Assembly: GCA_964435575.1 (NCBI GenBank)
Contig: CAYSZS010000005.1
Location: 1 to 50,446 of the forward strand
DNA: 50,446 nucleotides
Source of the DNA: an uncultured Gammaproteobacteria bacterium
GTDB taxonomy: Bacteria > Patescibacteriota > Microgenomatia > UBA8517
Reading direction: 5' to 3'
This document shows, one piece after another, positions 12,801 to 49,204 of the stretch (position 1 is the stretch's first letter; each line of letters begins with the position of its first letter). Both the position numbers and the translations under genes were made by a program. Below the pieces are notes generated by a model. The model ran no database searches and was not told where the DNA came from. It was given only the letters and a program-made list of their open reading frames with translations.

Positions 12801-12829
12801 TTGCCCCAAACCTAAATTTTTTGTATAAT
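12801..12829 (+). promoter_or_regulatory. Sigma70-like promoter for rpsL (near-leaderless)
   Basis: TTGCCC (12801-12806), 17-nt spacer, TATAAT (12824-12829). The rpsL ATG at 12840 lies only 10 nt beyond the -10 box. Confidence 0.5.
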
Positions 12830-12839
12830 TTCCAAGATT

Positions 12840-13307
12840 ATGCCTACTGTTTCTCAACTTGTTCGTAAAGGAAGAAAAAGAATTGCCAAAAAAACCAAAA
12901 AGGCAGCTCTGCGGCGGTGGTTTAGTGCCAAAGACAGAAGATTTGGAGAGCACGCGTCTCCTTCCAAAAGGGGTGTTGTTCTACAAGTTAGAACAATGAC
13001 TCCAAGAAAGCCGAACTCGGCCTTGAGGAAGGTCGCAAGAGTCAGGCTTTCCAATAAGCAGGAAGTTACGGCTTATATCCCGGGTGAAGGACACGAGCTT
13101 AGCGAACACGCTATTATTCTAATTCGTGGCGGGACGGTTAAGGATTTGCCGGGGATTAAGTATAAAGTTATAAGAGCTAAGTATGATACAACTGGAGTTG
13201 TAGGAAGAAAAAGCTCCAGAAGTAAGTATGGGACGAAGAAAGAGGGAGTTCAACGAGTAGTAACTGCGGCGACAACTGAGGAAAAACCCGTTGCCACAAG
13301 TACTTAA
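12840..13307 (+). CDS. rpsL: 30S ribosomal protein S12 (with internal insert and C-terminal extension)
   Basis: [41 protein letters not shown]. Confidence 0.95.
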
Positions 13308-13321
13308 TCTTTATCAATTTC

Positions 13322-13364
13322 AGGACAAAATACTTGTCCTAAAGCGACTGAAAGGAGTCGAAGG
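13322..13364 (+). promoter_or_regulatory. Conserved leader motif abutting the start codon (copy 1 of 3, divergent)
   Basis: Hairpin AGGACAA/TTGTCCT (13322-13340), hairpin CGACT/AGTCG (13345-13360), then AAGG immediately before the ATG. Shares CTTGTCCT...GAGTCGAAGGATG with the tuf and rpmJ leaders. Confidence 0.6.
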
Positions 13365-13841
13365 ATGCCAAGAAGAGGACAGGCTAAAATCAGAGAAATG
13401 AAACCTGATCCAATCTATAAAAACAGATTGGTCACAAAATTTATAAATAGATCCATGAGAGATGGTAAGAAATCTGTTGCTCAAAGGCAGGTTTATGACG
13501 CTTTTGTAATCCTTAAGGAAAAGGGTGAGGATCCAATAAAAGTTTTCTCTCAGGCTCTTGAAAATGTAAAACCCTCGATGGAGGTTAGGCCACGAAGAGT
13601 CGGGGGAGCCGCTTATCAGATTCCGTTAACGGTTCGTGGTCCCCGACGCGAATCTCTTGCAATTCGCTGGATTATTTTTGCCGCAAGATCTCGTTCGAAC
13701 TCAGAATTTCATATATTTTCTGAAAAATTAGCTGCAGAACTAACTGACGCCGCCAAAGGGGAAGGTGGAGCAGTCAAAAAGAAACAGGAAATGGAAAGAG
13801 TAGCTGAAGCGAATCGTGCCTTCGCCCATTTTAGATGGTAG
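13365..13841 (+). CDS. rpsG: 30S ribosomal protein S7
   Basis: MPRRGQ...; ends AFAHFRW-TAG, the canonical S7 C-terminus. Confidence 0.95.
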   Translation: MPRRGQAKIREMKPDPIYKNRLVTKFINRSMRDGKKSVAQRQVYDAFVILKEKGEDPIKVFSQALENVKPSMEVRPRRVGGAAYQIPLTVRGPRRESLAIRWIIFAARSRSNSEFHIFSEKLAAELTDAAKGEGGAVKKKQEMERVAEANRAFAHFRW

Positions 13842-13845
13842 TTTT

Positions 13846-14058
13846 ATGGATGATCTCACGTCACTCCGTCAATCGTTGAGAAAGTTACCCGAGGAAAATC
13901 TTGAGGAAATGGTGGAAGCCGCAACTGAGGCACGAAAACTGGCAGAACATTTTTATGGAAGACACGGGGGAATTTCTGCACGCTTTGCTGAAGAAGTTTC
14001 AACAAAATGGTTATTAGGAACTGTGGCAAGAGCAGTTATGAGAAAAAGAGAAGCTTAA
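13846..14058 (+). CDS. Hypothetical small protein (70 aa) inserted between rpsG and fusA
   Basis: ATG 4 nt after the rpsG stop. No recognisable motif. Helical, charged composition. Confidence 0.4.
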   Translation: MDDLTSLRQSLRKLPEENLEEMVEAATEARKLAEHFYGRHGGISARFAEEVSTKWLLGTVARAVMRKREA

Positions 14059-14070
14059 TTTAGCTCAAAA

Positions 14071-14424
14071 TTATTCCTCCCAAATCGTATCGTTTCCTTC
14101 AGGAAGATTTATCTTAAAAACTACTAATTTAAAGTCTTTATTAGATCTATTCCAAAGATTGTGTTTATCCTCTGGATTACAAATGAATGCATCTCCTGGT
14201 TTTGCGATATACTCTTTTCCGTCTATAAATATTGAGCATTCACCTTGAAGTGTGTAAAAAACTTCTGTTTGTTTATTGTGTGAATGCACCCTTTGTTTTG
14301 TATTTGCTGGGATTGTAACTGTTTGGAGTAAATGTCCTTTCTGTTCAAAGTCGGCTGGAGAGAATATTATGGTTTTTGAATAATCTTTATGATGCGAAGT
14401 GTCACCTGAACCAGACTTGCGATA
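14071..14424 (-). CDS. Cupin-domain protein lacking a canonical start (possible pseudogene)
   Basis: Cupin motif 1 HSHNKQTEVFYTLQG and motif 2 GDAFICNPEDKHNLWN. The frame is open upstream to 14424. The only in-frame ATG (14430-14428) is followed directly by TAA. The track GTG start at 14289 falls inside motif 1. Confidence 0.6.
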   Translation of the reverse strand, partial: YRKSGSGDTSHHKDYSKTIIFSPADFEQKGHLLQTVTIPANTKQRVHSHNKQTEVFYTLQGECSIFIDGKEYIAKPGDAFICNPEDKHNLWNRSNKDFKLVVFKINLPEGNDTIWEE

Positions 14425-14515
14425 TTACATTATGAAATTATATATTCTTGCCAGAAAATTATCTATGTTTATAACTCATTGATTTAACTTACAAACGTTG
14501 GTACAATTCTTTATG

Positions 14516-14543
14516 CTGCTTCCTTCCGGAGGCAGTTTATTTT
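14516..14543 (+). terminator. Intrinsic terminator-like hairpin upstream of fusA
   Basis: CTGCTTCC-TTCC-GGAGGCAG (8 bp with one G-U) followed by TTTATTTT. Confidence 0.45.
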
Positions 14544-14617
14544 GTAAAGAGGTTAAATTAGTTCTAAACTTAATCACGTAAACTCTCAATATCTTTATAT
14601 CTTAATATCTTTTTAAA

Positions 14618-16786
14618 ATGGCAGGTCAAGTTGCAAAGAAAAAAGCGGCGATGGTCATGACGGTCACCAAAGACCGTGATGTTCCTTTGGAAAAAATCCG
14701 AAACATCGGGATTATTGCTCATATTGATGCCGGGAAAACAACTACTACCGAGCGAATTCTTTTTGAAACAGGTAAAACTTATCGACTTGGATCTGTTGAT
14801 GAGGGGACAACTGTTACCGACTGGATGGAGCAGGAAAGAGAAAGGGGAATTACCATTGTTTCCGCAGCAATTACTACGTTTTGGGATTTGCAAACCGGTT
14901 CGGTTATTCCCAACGGTCATTACAGAATAAATATCATTGACACTCCCGGACACATAGATTTTACTGCTGAAGTCGAGAGAAGTTTGAGGGTTTTGGACGG
15001 AGCGGTTATGGTATTTGACGGTCGTACTGGAGTTGAGAGTCAAAGCGAAACCGTATGGAGACAAGCCGATCGTTATCATGTTCCCCGGATTTGTATTTTA
15101 AATAAACTTAATCTTATTGGTGCCGATTTTGAGGGTTCTATAAAATCAATTCATGAGAGGCTGGGTGCAAATGCAGCTCCCGTTCAACTTCCAATAGGCC
15201 TTGAACACGCACTTCACGGAGTAGTTGATCTTGTCAAAATGAAAGCTTATACCTATTCAGAAATTGAAGACAATAAGCTGGTTGAAAATGAGATTCCGCA
15301 AGATTTAGCTTTGGAGGCAAAGAAATATCGGGAAGAATTAGTCGAAAAGGTGGCTGAATTTGACGACGAGGCCCTGGCAAAATATCTGGACGGGAAAGAC
15401 TTAGGTGAAGTTGATATTAAAAGGGCCATAAGAGCAGGAGTTGTTGCGGGGAAATTTTTTCCGATTTTAGGTGGAGATAATAGGACGGCTACAGTGCAGC
15501 TTCTGATGGACGCGGTCGTTGAATATCTCCCCTCGCCATTGGACGTTCCCCCCGTAGAAGGAGTAAATCCGATAACCGACGAAAAGGAAATAAGGGAGCC
15601 AAAAAATGACGCACCATTTTCTGCTTTAGCCTTTAAAGTTGTAACCGATCCTCATGTGGGAAGACTTGTTTATTTAAGAATCTACTCGGGAAAAATCAAA
15701 GCAGGTGAGGTAATCAAGAATGTTTCCAAACAAAAAGAGGAAAGGATTGGCAAACTGGTTCTTCTTCACGCAGACCAAAGAGAATTAATCGATGAAGCCT
15801 TTGCAGGAGAAATTGTCGCGGTCGTAGGGATTAGGGAGACGACAACCGGAAATACGCTGTCGGACCTTAATAATCCGATAGTTTTGGAATCAATTGTTTT
15901 TCCCGAACCAGTTATCTCACTTGCGATTGAGCCTGAAACGAAAAGCGATCAGGAAAAAATGGGGCTTGCTCTTCAAAAACTTTCAGACGAAGACCCGACA
16001 TTTAAGATCAAATCAAATCCCGAAACAGGCCAGACGATTATATCCGGAATGGGAGAACTCCAGCTTGAAGTTTTGGTTGACAGAATGAAGAGGGAGTTTA
16101 GTGTTGATGCAAAAACCGGCGCTCCCCAAGTTGCATATAAAGAGACCATAAAGAAGATTGCCCAGGGGGAAGGGAAGTATATTAGACAAACAGGAGGCCG
16201 CGGTCAGTATGGTCATTGTTTCTTGAGAGTTGAACCCAAAGGGCGGGGTGAGGGATATGAGTGGAAAAGTGAAATTAAAGGTGGAAGCATTCCTTCTGAA
16301 TTTGTTCCGGCTATAGAAAAAGGAGTAAGAGAGAAATTGGAAAACGGCATTTTGGCAGGTTTCCCCATGACCGATATGAAAGTTATCGTCTACGACGGAT
16401 CTTTCCATGAAGTTGATTCAAGTGAAATAGCCTTCAAAATTGCCGGTTCTTTGGCGGTTGAAGAAGCGGCAAAGCACGCCGATATGGTTCTTCTCGAACC
16501 AATAATGAAGATAGAAGTATCAACCCCAGATGAGTTTATGGGAGATGTTATTGGAGACTTGTCCAGTAAGCGGGCTCAAATTCAGGGGACAGAGAAAAGA
16601 GGAAATATGACTGTGATTTTAGGACTGGTTCCCCTTGCAGAGGTTCCCGGATACGCGACTAAACTTCGCTCAATTTCGCAGGGGAGAGCCAGTTTTTACA
16701 TGGAACCGAGTCACTATGAAGAGGTTCCAACAAATATTGCCGCAAGTTTAATAACCCAGCGAAGTGGGATAAATCGTAGAGTTTGA
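14618..16786 (+). CDS. fusA: Elongation factor G
   Basis: [29 protein letters not shown], domain IV/V blocks. 722 aa. Confidence 0.95.
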
Positions 16787-16796
16787 GGTTTAGGGC

Positions 16797-16826
16797 TTGA
16801 CAGCTTTGATTTAGCTTTGATAGAAT
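16797..16826 (+). promoter_or_regulatory. Sigma70-like promoter candidate in the fusA-tuf spacer
   Basis: TTGACA (16797-16802), 18-nt spacer, TAGAAT (16821-16826). Confidence 0.4.
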
Positions 16827-16836
16827 ACCAATCACT

Positions 16837-16860
16837 AAGGGCTATAATGCCCTTGTTTTT
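16837..16860 (+). terminator. Terminator/attenuator-like hairpin in the fusA-tuf spacer
   Basis: AAGGGC-TATAAT-GCCCTT followed by GTTTTT. Confidence 0.4.
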
Positions 16861-16935
16861 GTGAACCCCAAAATTATGTTATAATTTTGAGGACCCCGAA
16901 ATAAATTGGGGGGAGATTAAAAGCAAGCTTTTTCG

Positions 16936-16976
16936 GGATAAGAAACTTGTCCTGAGTGAGCGAAGCGAGTCGAAGG
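16936..16976 (+). promoter_or_regulatory. Conserved leader motif abutting the start codon (copy 2 of 3)
   Basis: Hairpin GGATAAG/CTTGTCC, then TGAGTGAGCGAAGCGAGTCGAAGG directly before the tuf ATG. Near-identical to 31789-31830. Confidence 0.65.
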
Positions 16977-18176
16977 ATGGCAGGAGATACAAAACAGAAA
17001 TTTGAAAGGACAAAACCTCATATTAATGTTGGTACTATTGGCCACGTTGATCACGGTAAAACAACCTTGACTTCCGCCATAACTAATGTTCTTTCAAAAC
17101 AATCAGGGAATAAAACAAAAGCTCTTAAGTTTGACGATATTGACAATGCTCCGGAAGAAAAAGAAAGAGGAGTTACCATTAATATTACCCACGTTGAATA
17201 CGAGACCGAAAAGCGCCACTACGCACACATTGATGCTCCCGGTCACGCAGACTACATCAAGAACATGATTACAGGTGCTGCTCAAATGGACGGGGCGATT
17301 TTGGTTATTTCAGCTCCAGATGGCCCGATGCCTCAAACCCGAGAACACGTTATTTTGGCCAGACAAGTAAACGTTCCTGCAATTGTTGTTGCACTCAATA
17401 AAGTCGATGCTGTTGATGATCCCGAGATAATTGAGCTGGTTGAGTCAGACGTGCGCGATCTTCTGAAAAAGTATGAATATCCGGGTGACGAAGTTCCAAT
17501 AATTAAAGTTTCCGCGCTTAAGGCATTGGACGGCGACGCCGAAGCTGAAAAGCAAATTTTGGAACTAATGAAGGCAGTCGATGACTATATCCCGGATCCT
17601 GTTAGAGATATTGATAAGCCATTTGTCATGCCCGTTGAAGACGTCTTCTCGATTAAAGGTCGCGGAACCGTTGCAACAGGTAGAGTAGAGAGGGGTAAGC
17701 TAAAAGTTAATGAGGAAGTTGAAATCGTTGGACTTCACGATACCAAAAAGACGGTTGTTACAGGACTTGAGATGTTCAGAAAGACTTTGGATGAAACTCA
17801 AGCAGGAGACAATGTTGGTGTACTACTTCGTGGAATTGAGAAAGACGAAGTTGAGAGGGGTCAGGTTCTCGCTAAGCCGGGTACAGTTACTCCCCATACA
17901 GAATTTGAAGCAGAAGTTTATATTCTAAGCAAAGAGGAAGGTGGTCGTCATACACCTTTTTTTACTGGTTACAAACCGCAGTTTTACATTCGAACCGCAG
18001 ACGTTACGGGCGAGGTTACCCTTCCTGAGGGAATTGAGATGGTCATGCCGGGAGATAATGCCAAAATGAAGGTTAAACTTATTCAACCGGTTGCAATGGA
18101 AGAGGGTTGGAGATTTGCGATACGAGAAGGCGGACAGACTGTTGGTGCCGGAGTTATTACTAAGATAATTGTTTAA
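16977..18176 (+). CDS. tuf: Elongation factor Tu
   Basis: [42 protein letters not shown]. Start set at ATG 16977 rather than the upstream alternative start of the track ORF. Confidence 0.96.
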
Positions 18177-31788: not shown

Positions 31789-31830
31789 AGGATAGAAAAC
31801 CTGTCCTGAGCGAGCGAAGCGAGTCGAAGG
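31789..31830 (+). promoter_or_regulatory. Conserved leader motif abutting the start codon (copy 3 of 3)
   Basis: Hairpin AGGATAG/CTGTCCT, then GAGCGAGCGAAGCGAGTCGAAGG directly before the rpmJ ATG. Confidence 0.65.
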
Positions 31831-31944
31831 ATGAAAGTTCAGTCGTCAGTCAAAAAAAGGTGCCGAGATTGCAAAATAGTAAAGCGTAAAGGCGTTTTAT
31901 ACGTGATTTGTAAAAATCCAAGGCACAAACAAAGACAGGGTTAA
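31831..31944 (+). CDS. rpmJ: 50S ribosomal protein L36
   Basis: Own translation: [40 protein letters not shown] (37 aa). Absent from the ORF track because of its size. Confidence 0.92.
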
Positions 31945-47905: not shown

Positions 47906-47937
47906 AGATCCTTCGACCTTGCTCAGGATGATCAAGA

Positions 47938-48739: not shown

Positions 48740-49204
48740 ATGTTTAATCATGATCCCAAAAACTATCGATGTCCGTTATGTGCCATAAGGGATGGAATTG
48801 AAGGCGACTTTCCTTATTCAAAACAGGCAGATATATTTTTCAAAGATGAGTTTACAACTGCAATTATAGCATCGCATTGGTGGCCGACAAATAAGGGCCA
48901 CGTACTTATATTTCCAAACGAGCACGTAGAAAATATTTATGATATTAGTGACGAATTACTGTCAAGAGTACATTCTTTTGCTAAAAAAGTCGCCATTGCG
49001 ATGAAAGAGTTATATAGATGTGGGGGGATTACTGTCAGACAAAACAATGAGCAGCCTGGTGACCAAGACGTATGGCATTTCCACTTACATGTTTTCCCAA
49101 GATATACAGGAGATAGTATCGATCAAACCTCCGGATTAAGACAATTAAGTGAGCCAGAAAAGCGCGTTCCTTACTCAGAAAAATTAAAACGCTATTTCAG
49201 TTAA
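48740..49204 (+). CDS. HIT-family nucleotide hydrolase/transferase
   Basis: Histidine triad HFHLHVFPR. N-terminal CPLC. Start set at ATG 48740 just after tRNA-Pro. Confidence 0.85.
   Translation: MFNHDPKNYRCPLCAIRDGIEGDFPYSKQADIFFKDEFTTAIIASHWWPTNKGHVLIFPNEHVENIYDISDELLSRVHSFAKKVAIAMKELYRCGGITVRQNNEQPGDQDVWHFHLHVFPRYTGDSIDQTSGLRQLSEPEKRVPYSEKLKRYFS

Follow-up and report, generated by a model that had tools for sequence, protein, structure and literature searches.

The Correia elements (CREE/NEMIS) of Neisseria, repeats of ~100-150 bp that carry terminal inverted repeats and duplicate their TA target, are small and gene-adjacent, are co-transcribed with neighboring genes, form hairpins in the mRNA and alter the expression of those genes, supplying promoters and RNase III sites; they are not known to supply a Shine-Dalgarno sequence at a fixed distance from an ATG. 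Here, we analyze a repeat that ends directly at start codons, a unit of 37-46 nt with two hairpins, of which three copies precede rpsG (ribosomal protein S7), tuf (EF-Tu) and rpmJ (L36) in a 50,446-nt stretch of DNA (hereafter, the window; contig CAYSZS010000005.1 of assembly GCA_964435575.1). The source genome (G000; 1.12 Mb, 58 contigs, 38% G+C) belongs to the class Microgenomatia of the Candidate Phyla Radiation (CPR). The closest published description that we found is that of the CGTC/TGTC-tagged superfamily of repetitive extragenic palindromic (REP) elements (Di Nocera, De Gregorio & Rocco 2013, PMC3733652), a superfamily without a known transposase whose members include Rickettsia RPE-4 and RPE-6 and Neisseria dRS3. 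In this superfamily, one end of the palindrome bears a CGTC, TGTC or CCTC tag that is unpaired, and an 8-9 bp stem opening with A-T is accompanied by a 4-5 nt loop and a tail of 3 nt that fits CCA (PMC3733652). Our analysis suggests, with a probability of about 0.5, that a hairpin repeat of this REP-like kind has been reused in a CPR lineage as a portable translation-initiation region, by means of a Shine-Dalgarno sequence held in the hairpin tip.

The family to which the unit belongs resembles the tagged REP elements in consisting of short hairpin repeats that are found in many phyla, within and between genes, with no dedicated transposase found. In its widespread form (TGTC-AT-CCTGAG...CGAAGG-AT), the sequence directly 5' of the stem resembles the TGTC/CGTC tag, and the stem starts with A-T. 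In contrast to the REP elements, however, with their Watson-Crick stem of 8-9 bp and loop of 4-5 nt, the family hairpin is a rod containing tandem G.A pairs and capped by a GNA loop of 3 nt, it lacks the CCA tail (ATC or ATG comes next), and no head-to-head dimers were seen. The subfamily present in the window departs further, as it is without the 5' AT and stands fused to start codons, a position not described for those families; indeed, the literature searched yielded no account of hairpin repeats fused to start codons. The tip of the rod recalls the DNA mini-hairpin d(GCGNAGC) of Hirao and colleagues, with a GNA triloop closed by C-G, and reads GCGAAGC in the tuf and rpmJ copies (PMC13037366). 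A C-G-closed GNA triloop characterizes the very stable DNA mini-hairpin GCGNAGC and not stable RNA loops, and the review of this hairpin treats the isolated 7-mer and a few replication or transcription origins rather than genome-wide repeats or translation starts (PMC13037366). Because its tip conforms to this DNA pattern, the wider family was probably selected as a single-strand DNA hairpin. The unit can also be set beside a canonical Shine-Dalgarno region. As in such a region, GAAAGGAG of the rpsG copy complements the organism's own 16S rRNA tail ~7 nt before a verified start; unlike in such a region, it is embedded in a 38-nt unit that is near-identical across unrelated genes and genomes, and in some copies, including those of tuf and rpmJ, the match is imperfect.

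A covariance model trained on 28 related copies scored the rpmJ, tuf and rpsG units at 62.0, 60.7 and 48.7 bits, respectively (E-values 1e-16 to 1e-12), in agreement with the original prediction that a similar element stands at the start codons of these 3 genes. All 3 copies lie on the forward strand and fold into hairpin 1, AGGAYAR.../...YTGTCCT. The tuf unit (16935-16976) comprises hairpin 1, formed by GGGATAAG (16935-16942), the loop AAA and CTTGTCCT (16946-16953), and the hairpin 2 core CCTGAG...CGAAGG (16951-16976) with its apex GCGAAGC at 16960-16966, and directly abuts the ATG at 16977-16979. The rpmJ unit (31789-31830) has hairpin 1 arms AGGATAG (31789-31795) and CTGTCCT (31801-31807) and a hairpin 2 core at 31805-31830, followed by the ATG at 31831-31833. 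The rpsG unit (13322-13364) pairs AGGACAA (13322-13328) with TTGTCCT (13334-13340) and carries a 1-nt insertion (CCTaAAG) in its hairpin 2 core (13338-13364), of which the apex with the Shine-Dalgarno sequence GAAAGGAG occupies 13350-13357; the ATG at 13365-13367 opens the protein MPRRGQAKIRE.... Judging from relatives, whose proteins begin at the same residues in all 3 cases, the annotated ATGs are the true starts. The extension MSEASRRM on EF-Tu, correctly taken in the original prediction for an artefact of the motif, belongs to a GTG-started open reading frame (ORF) at 16956-18176, with the GTG at 16956 lying inside the unit.

The resemblance between copies is close. The same 31-mer, GTCCTGAGYGAGCGAAGCGAGTCGAAGGATG, occurs at 16949-16979 (tuf) and 31803-31833 (rpmJ), with 0 occurrences expected from shuffles (n=100); from GTCCTGAG through the ATG, the two sites have the same letters except at one Y position. 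The final 13 nt, GAGTCGAAGGATG, are common to the rpsG, tuf and rpmJ sites. A genome-wide search with the covariance model located a fourth full copy, at 49133-49170 on the reverse strand of contig C3, ending at the ATG of a family-4 glycosyltransferase gene, and all four full copies of G000 finish ...GUCGAAGG directly against the AUG. The sequence 5' of the unit is unique in the genome and lies outside the repeat. In addition, G000 contains ~28 shorter relatives (CCTGAGC..TCGAAGG, with variable closing stems), genic and intergenic and in both orientations. One of these, ATCCTGAGCAAGGTCGAAGGAT (47908-47929, reverse strand; 16.4 bits), stands in the window between two convergent genes, away from start codons. 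The degenerate boxes that had been proposed upstream of rpoC and rplP gave no covariance-model match at E<=10, and GCGAAGC by itself occurs 88 times in the genome. Comparison with Rfam, which had been suggested as a check, gave nothing that overlaps the motif, whether in the whole window at the gathering threshold or in positions 13200-17000 at E<=10.

Hairpin 2 has the form CCUGAG-CGA-NN-GNA-NN-GAG-UCGAAGG, with core positions 1-26 running from CCUGAG to CGAAGG, and is best drawn as a single rod. Its outer pairs (C1-G26, C2-G25 and U3-A24) are followed by a first set of tandem G.A pairs (4/23 and 5/22), inner pairs (G6-C21 and C7-G19, between which U20 bulges out), another tandem G.A set (8/18 and 9/17) and a tip consisting of the variable pairs 10/16 and 11/15 and a 3-nt loop. 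Among 84 distinct cores from the class and the order, pair 10/16 is G-C in 42, C-G in 18 and A-T in 12, and pair 11/15 is C-G in 56, T-A in 18 and T-G in 8. Both apical pairs are formed in 88% of the cores, compared to 44% (maximum 57%) when partners are shuffled, and pair 7/19 covaries too (C-G, T-G, T-A). The 28 fused copies tell the same story, with 96% of cells paired and 20 double changes versus 6.8 in shuffles, and sliding the partners cuts pairing to 37-60%. The loop is GNA in 60 of the 84 cores (GAA > GGA > GTA > GCA) and is closed by C-G in 56. As for hairpin 1, the compensatory change between A-T in tuf and G-C in rpmJ is there as claimed but amounts to one event only. The proposal that TCCT of hairpin 1 can alternatively pair with the AGGA next to the start codon finds a counterpart in the fold of the short fragment alone, where UGUCCU pairs with AGGAUG; in the full context, however, hairpin 1 prevails over the CCU/AGG pairing that closes hairpin 2, so that AGGAUG stays free of pairing.

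Hairpin 2 forms the conserved core of a family of hairpin repeats that extends across many phyla. The exact 26-mer CCTGAGYGAGCRAAGCGAGTCGAAGG was found on more than 120 contigs among the matches listed, which include Acidobacteriota, Clostridia, Coriobacteriia, Gammaproteobacteria, Planctomycetota, Bacteroidota and several CPR groups. The cross-phylum form is mostly TGTCAT-core-ATC; ATG comes next in 3 of 89 copies, and ..TCAT, mostly as TGTCAT, stands directly 5' in 40 of them. In the class sample, GTCAT is directly 5' in 20 of 120 copies, and in the window copies TGTC overlaps the stem (TTGTCCTGAG) and hence is not an unpaired tag there. The orientation of cross-phylum copies relative to nearby genes is uninformative, since TGTCAT reads ATGACA when reversed and high-GC genomes give long chance ORFs. 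Nesting is common, with one family hairpin inside the loop or stem of another, e.g., CCTGAG-[TGGTGAGCAAAGTCGAACCA]-TCGAAGG; nested copies are seen in G000 at C33:1527-1571 (reverse strand) and at several cross-phylum loci (L095 and L103 among them). By its sequence features, the family appears REP-like, resembling REP elements and Rickettsia palindromic elements. A relationship with RAYT-linked, GTAG-tagged REP/REPIN was considered and rejected for G000: the unit carries no GTAG tag, and neither of the 2 Y1_Tnp matches in the genome has a CCTGAG..CGAAGG hairpin within 700 nt. One of these matches (C30:4683-5015, reverse strand), of the IS200 type, contains one TGA and one TAG codon in frame and is probably decayed, and the second (C2:19403-19681) is weaker. 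Mobilization by a small GIY-YIG nuclease was likewise rejected for G000, the only genome covered, as none of its 4 small GIY-YIG ORFs has a family hairpin within 260 nt. These ORFs are free-standing, each beside a tRNA gene (C47:1716-1931, C16:6534-6737, C23:14429-14641 and C26:5606-5815), and the C16 locus contains duplicated tRNA fragments.

Against this background, a subfamily with the form (A)CTTGT-core-AT is tied to start codons. The pattern TGTCCTGAG-N10-GAGTCGAAGG, with at most 1 mismatch, was found in 25 of 139 genomes of the order, and the ATG of a real gene follows immediately 3' in 19 of the 33 order copies examined (binomial p ~2e-22); such abutting copies occur in 14 of the 139 genomes. 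Further copies from the class, in a sample of which 8 of 120 family members are fused, bring the collection to 29. The fused genes encode ribosomal proteins S7 (2 copies), L36, L33, S5, L20 (2 copies), L35, L24, L27, L10 and S4, as well as EF-Tu, DnaK, HU, NusA, RpoD, LexA (3 copies), YidC (3 copies), 5 glycosyltransferases and 1 unknown protein. Pfam confirms L33, S5, L20, L35, L24, L27, L10, S4, LexA, sigma-70, NusA, HU, YidC and the glycosyltransferases, with profiles aligning from residue 1-3. Ribosomal protein genes make up 12 of the 29 abutted genes, compared to ~5% of all genes (p ~6e-9). No fused copies were found outside the class among ~375 genomes of the phylum, and the fused subfamily was encountered only in this CPR class. 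In places, nothing but the unit separates the upstream stop codon from the ATG. The abutted sites have no common target motif besides the ATG, and nearly all abutting copies lie at offset 0 from it, which points to either a precise placement mechanism or spread from start to start with the ATG as one boundary. The copy upstream of the S4 gene rpsD (L284 in G156) abuts a GTG, and there the base that pairs with the first codon position is C in place of T, a single compensatory change. The lineage specificity and the placement on highly expressed translation genes that the original prediction proposed are borne out for the start-codon-fused form, which such genes carry in many genomes; the core, however, belongs to a generic cross-phylum repeat, which also occurs inside genes and on either strand.

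The distribution of the unit among relatives is patchy. At tuf, it is absent in 29 relatives examined, including G001 of the same genus; the tuf leaders of these relatives are A/T-rich or consist of 'TAATCAC' repeats, without a Shine-Dalgarno sequence, and several have TATAAT 6-10 nt before the ATG. A genome of another family (G034) carries a different family member, ...GTCGAACC, directly before its tuf ATG. The rpmJ unit is found in G000 only, being absent in G001 and the other relatives examined, and the rpsG unit is restricted to G000 and G001 among the relatives examined, with canonical CCTGAG in the latter. The rpsL-rpsG spacer is ~93% identical between these 2 genomes, in which the S7 proteins are 78% identical, and the coding DNA flanking the spacer is, by eye in the alignment, clearly more diverged. 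The better conservation of the rpsG leader relative to the flanking coding sequence suggests that the leader is under constraint.

Several junctions are found both with and without the unit. Orthologues of the glycosyltransferase gene carry it, or a decayed form, in 5 of ~25 cases; the G000 copy fills the gap between TGA and ATG, where a relative has TGAttATG. Within genus g27, the L18/S5 junction is found in three arrangements: the two genes overlap as TAATG in G031 and are separated by an 80-nt TAATCAC tract in G027, and in G036 the space from TAA to ATG is taken up exactly by the 37-nt unit. In these g27 species, the L27 leaders have a promoter in common and nothing alike downstream of it. 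Two copies in G038 have in common the rare GAGCCGAAGG variant and an AGCTTGT flank, and G034 contains a tandem pair. More generally, copies are more alike within a genome than across genomes, which points to copying of the subfamily within genomes. Taken together, the sequences compared indicate that the unit is a copied repeat with a cross-phylum core and not an old gene-specific leader. The unit also affects the gene upstream of the glycosyltransferase: in 2 genomes (L252 in G038 and L268 in G048), that gene reads into the unit and stops at the TGA of the hairpin tip (CUGAAAGG), gaining a C-terminal tail ...LVLSD or ...LALSE, whereas an ATGA overlap joins the two genes in relatives that lack the unit.

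The feature that would link the unit to initiation resides in the hairpin tip. The 16S rRNA of G000 ends in GAUCACCUCCUUUCU, and in 21 of the 29 abutting copies (rpsG and 20 relatives) the tip has GAAAGGAG, GAAGGGAG or a similar sequence on its 3' side. Such tips pair with the 16S tail at ~-12 kcal/mol and leave 6 unpaired nt to the ATG (~7 nt aligned, from GGAG), compared to a median of -3.9 kcal/mol for 42 ordinary genes of the window. GGAG-type tips are found in 21 of 29 abutting copies versus 16 of 125 other copies (Fisher p = 5e-10). The two apical positions are free to vary as long as Watson-Crick pairing is kept, and CU/AG or CC/GG satisfies the hairpin and the Shine-Dalgarno sequence alike. 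The original prediction held that the AAGGA next to the ATG is too close to act as a normal Shine-Dalgarno sequence, thereby overlooking the true candidate; because that candidate lies in the tip, ~7 nt upstream of the ATG in rpsG and most relatives, the AAGGA is likely a mere spacer and part of the closing stem.

We envisage the following scenario. The subfamily would have been copied within genomes of the CPR class so as to end exactly at start codons, and the unit, once in the mRNA, would act as the translation-initiation region of the downstream gene. The 3' side of the hairpin tip would serve as the Shine-Dalgarno sequence, as GAAAGGAG in rpsG and most relatives and as the imperfect GAAGCGAG in tuf and rpmJ. 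Hairpin 1 may tie up CUUGUCCU, which would otherwise be free to pair with AGGAUG, so that the start codon stays open; this putative anti-sequestor role is consistent with the fold in full context. Nevertheless, a number of observations weigh against this reading. It is weakest for tuf and rpmJ, the very copies that drew attention to the motif: their tips have the cross-phylum consensus GCGAAGC and that of the glycosyltransferase copy is the variant GCAAAGC, and all three pair weakly with the 16S tail (-4.9 to -5.5 kcal/mol; -5.5 for tuf and rpmJ); even so, each abuts its ATG exactly, and one of these genes is the most strongly expressed that a bacterium has. Weak tips are found in 8 of the 29 abutting copies, and because these copies also sit at the ATG, placement is independent of a strong Shine-Dalgarno tip. 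The Shine-Dalgarno sequence is, moreover, partly base-paired in the folded hairpin, and hairpin 1 is clear, by the criterion used, in 12 of 28 abutting copies. Finally, selection on spacing alone would permit offsets of a few nucleotides, yet offset 0 prevails.

That precise placement would also be expected of a selfish mobile hairpin which inserts preferentially at position -1 or at a stop/start junction and is tolerated but unused by the host, its Shine-Dalgarno-like tips being secondary repairs. Such an element would account for the patchiness even within one genus, for a core that is near letter-identical in many phyla, for the generic copies inside genes in both orientations, and for the presence of the youngest-looking copies (tuf, rpmJ and glycosyltransferase) at an ATG with the consensus tip and without a strong Shine-Dalgarno sequence. 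Yet it would have to find its sites without a common target motif other than the ATG and without a linked nuclease or transposase, since in G000 the element flanks neither the GIY-YIG nor the Y1 genes, and an insertion replacing the leader of EF-Tu must still give strong initiation. The conservation of the rpsG leader beyond that of the coding sequence and the enrichment of Shine-Dalgarno tips among abutting copies are also at odds with an unused element, and we regard this explanation as rather unlikely. Somewhat less likely still is that a trans-acting factor recognizes the unit in the mRNA, be it an RNA-binding regulator coordinating ribosome and translation genes or an endonuclease whose cleavage at the base of hairpin 2 would turn internal cistrons into leaderless mRNAs beginning at the AUG. 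Conservation of the flanks CCUGAGCGA and GAGUCGAAGG goes far beyond the needs of a Shine-Dalgarno sequence, the gene set resembles a growth regulon, the unit finishes exactly at the A of AUG, and leaderless-looking genes are common in the clade, with TATAAT 6-10 nt before the ATG at tuf in relatives and at rpsL here. Recent copying, however, explains the strong conservation equally well, glycosyltransferase, LexA and YidC genes carry the unit too, and we found neither an Rfam family nor a candidate protein.

The two hairpins, with a UCCU that can alternatively pair with two AGGA boxes, and the conservation of the rpsG leader within the genus are what one might expect of an ancient, vertically inherited cis-regulatory leader of rpsG, tuf and rpmJ, of the riboswitch or ribosomal protein autoregulation type. 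This reading is contradicted by the distribution among relatives, in which the unit is missing at tuf in all 29 (save the related but different hairpin of G034) and at rpmJ throughout and reaches no further than G001 at rpsG; the unit also precedes unrelated genes in other genomes and matches no Rfam family. With copies patchy even inside one genus, the notion of a conserved ancestral leader is to be abandoned, and we consider it highly improbable. The reuse of a REP-like repeat as an initiation region, which we prefer, could be taken further, to a self-propagating mobile 'portable ribosome-binding site' with its own precise landing at the stop/start junction or at -1, bringing along the Shine-Dalgarno sequence and perhaps the A of the ATG, and doubling as a tag of ribosome-biogenesis mRNAs read by a protein or nuclease, similar to eukaryotic 5'TOP or to the mitochondrial 'punctuation' that yields leaderless mRNAs. 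We offer this extension as a speculation to which we would assign low odds.

Other candidate identities were tried and rejected. A hammerhead (CUGANGA-stem II-GAA) is approached by the core CUGAGCGA, which has one extra base, GAG for GAA and a stem II of 2 bp, and a kink-turn was dismissed on inspection, as there is no 3-nt bulge beside the tandem G.A pairs; neither has an Rfam match. Likeness to domain V of group II introns was rejected on inspection of the core. Read as a promoter, TTGTCC-N17-TCGAAG offers a -35-like box but, on inspection, no usable -10. The AGGAT is not a target-site duplication: the 5' AGGA stands at varying distance and is complementary to CUUGUCCU, and it is therefore the 5' arm of hairpin 1. 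Nor does this AGGA behave as the original Shine-Dalgarno sequence of the gene, since the spacings obtained upon removal of the unit, 2 to 11 nt, are inconsistent.

The clade displays other leader features as well. A second recurrent leader type consists of G-poor, TAATCAC(T)-like repeats reaching as far as the ATG; it lacks a Shine-Dalgarno sequence and is found at highly expressed genes, e.g., at tuf (L003 in G001 and L004 in G023), rpsE (L287 in G027) and rpsG (L047 in G024). Upstream of tuf, at ~16820-16866 of the window and in at least 10 related genera (L002-L027), lies a TTGACA-N17-TATAAT promoter, followed after ~10 nt by a conserved hairpin, AAGGGC-N5-GCCCTT, with a T-tract and then by a second -10 box and tuf; the hairpin could be the fusA terminator, a promoter-proximal attenuator or a tiny RNA. 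At rpsL (12801-12842), TATAAT ends ~10 nt before the ATG, without a Shine-Dalgarno sequence, and several relatives are alike in this respect at tuf; from its sequence, rpsL looks leaderless or nearly so. The gap between rpsG and fusA, genes that are normally adjacent, spans ~776 nt (13842-14617).

These findings have implications for annotation, as false N-terminal extensions (MSEASRRM on EF-Tu, for instance) arise from the unit, which also alters the C-terminal tails of upstream genes, and the cross-phylum repeats generate many spurious small ORFs of the '...LSEAKRVEG...' type. Mini-hairpin repeats clamped by G.A pairs are common in metagenomes across phyla, and the case described here is a concrete and testable one. 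If our interpretation is correct, a selfish-looking repeat would have become the initiation region of EF-Tu and of a dozen ribosomal protein genes, and this takeover would have occurred in a lineage whose native leaders are mostly devoid of Shine-Dalgarno sequences.

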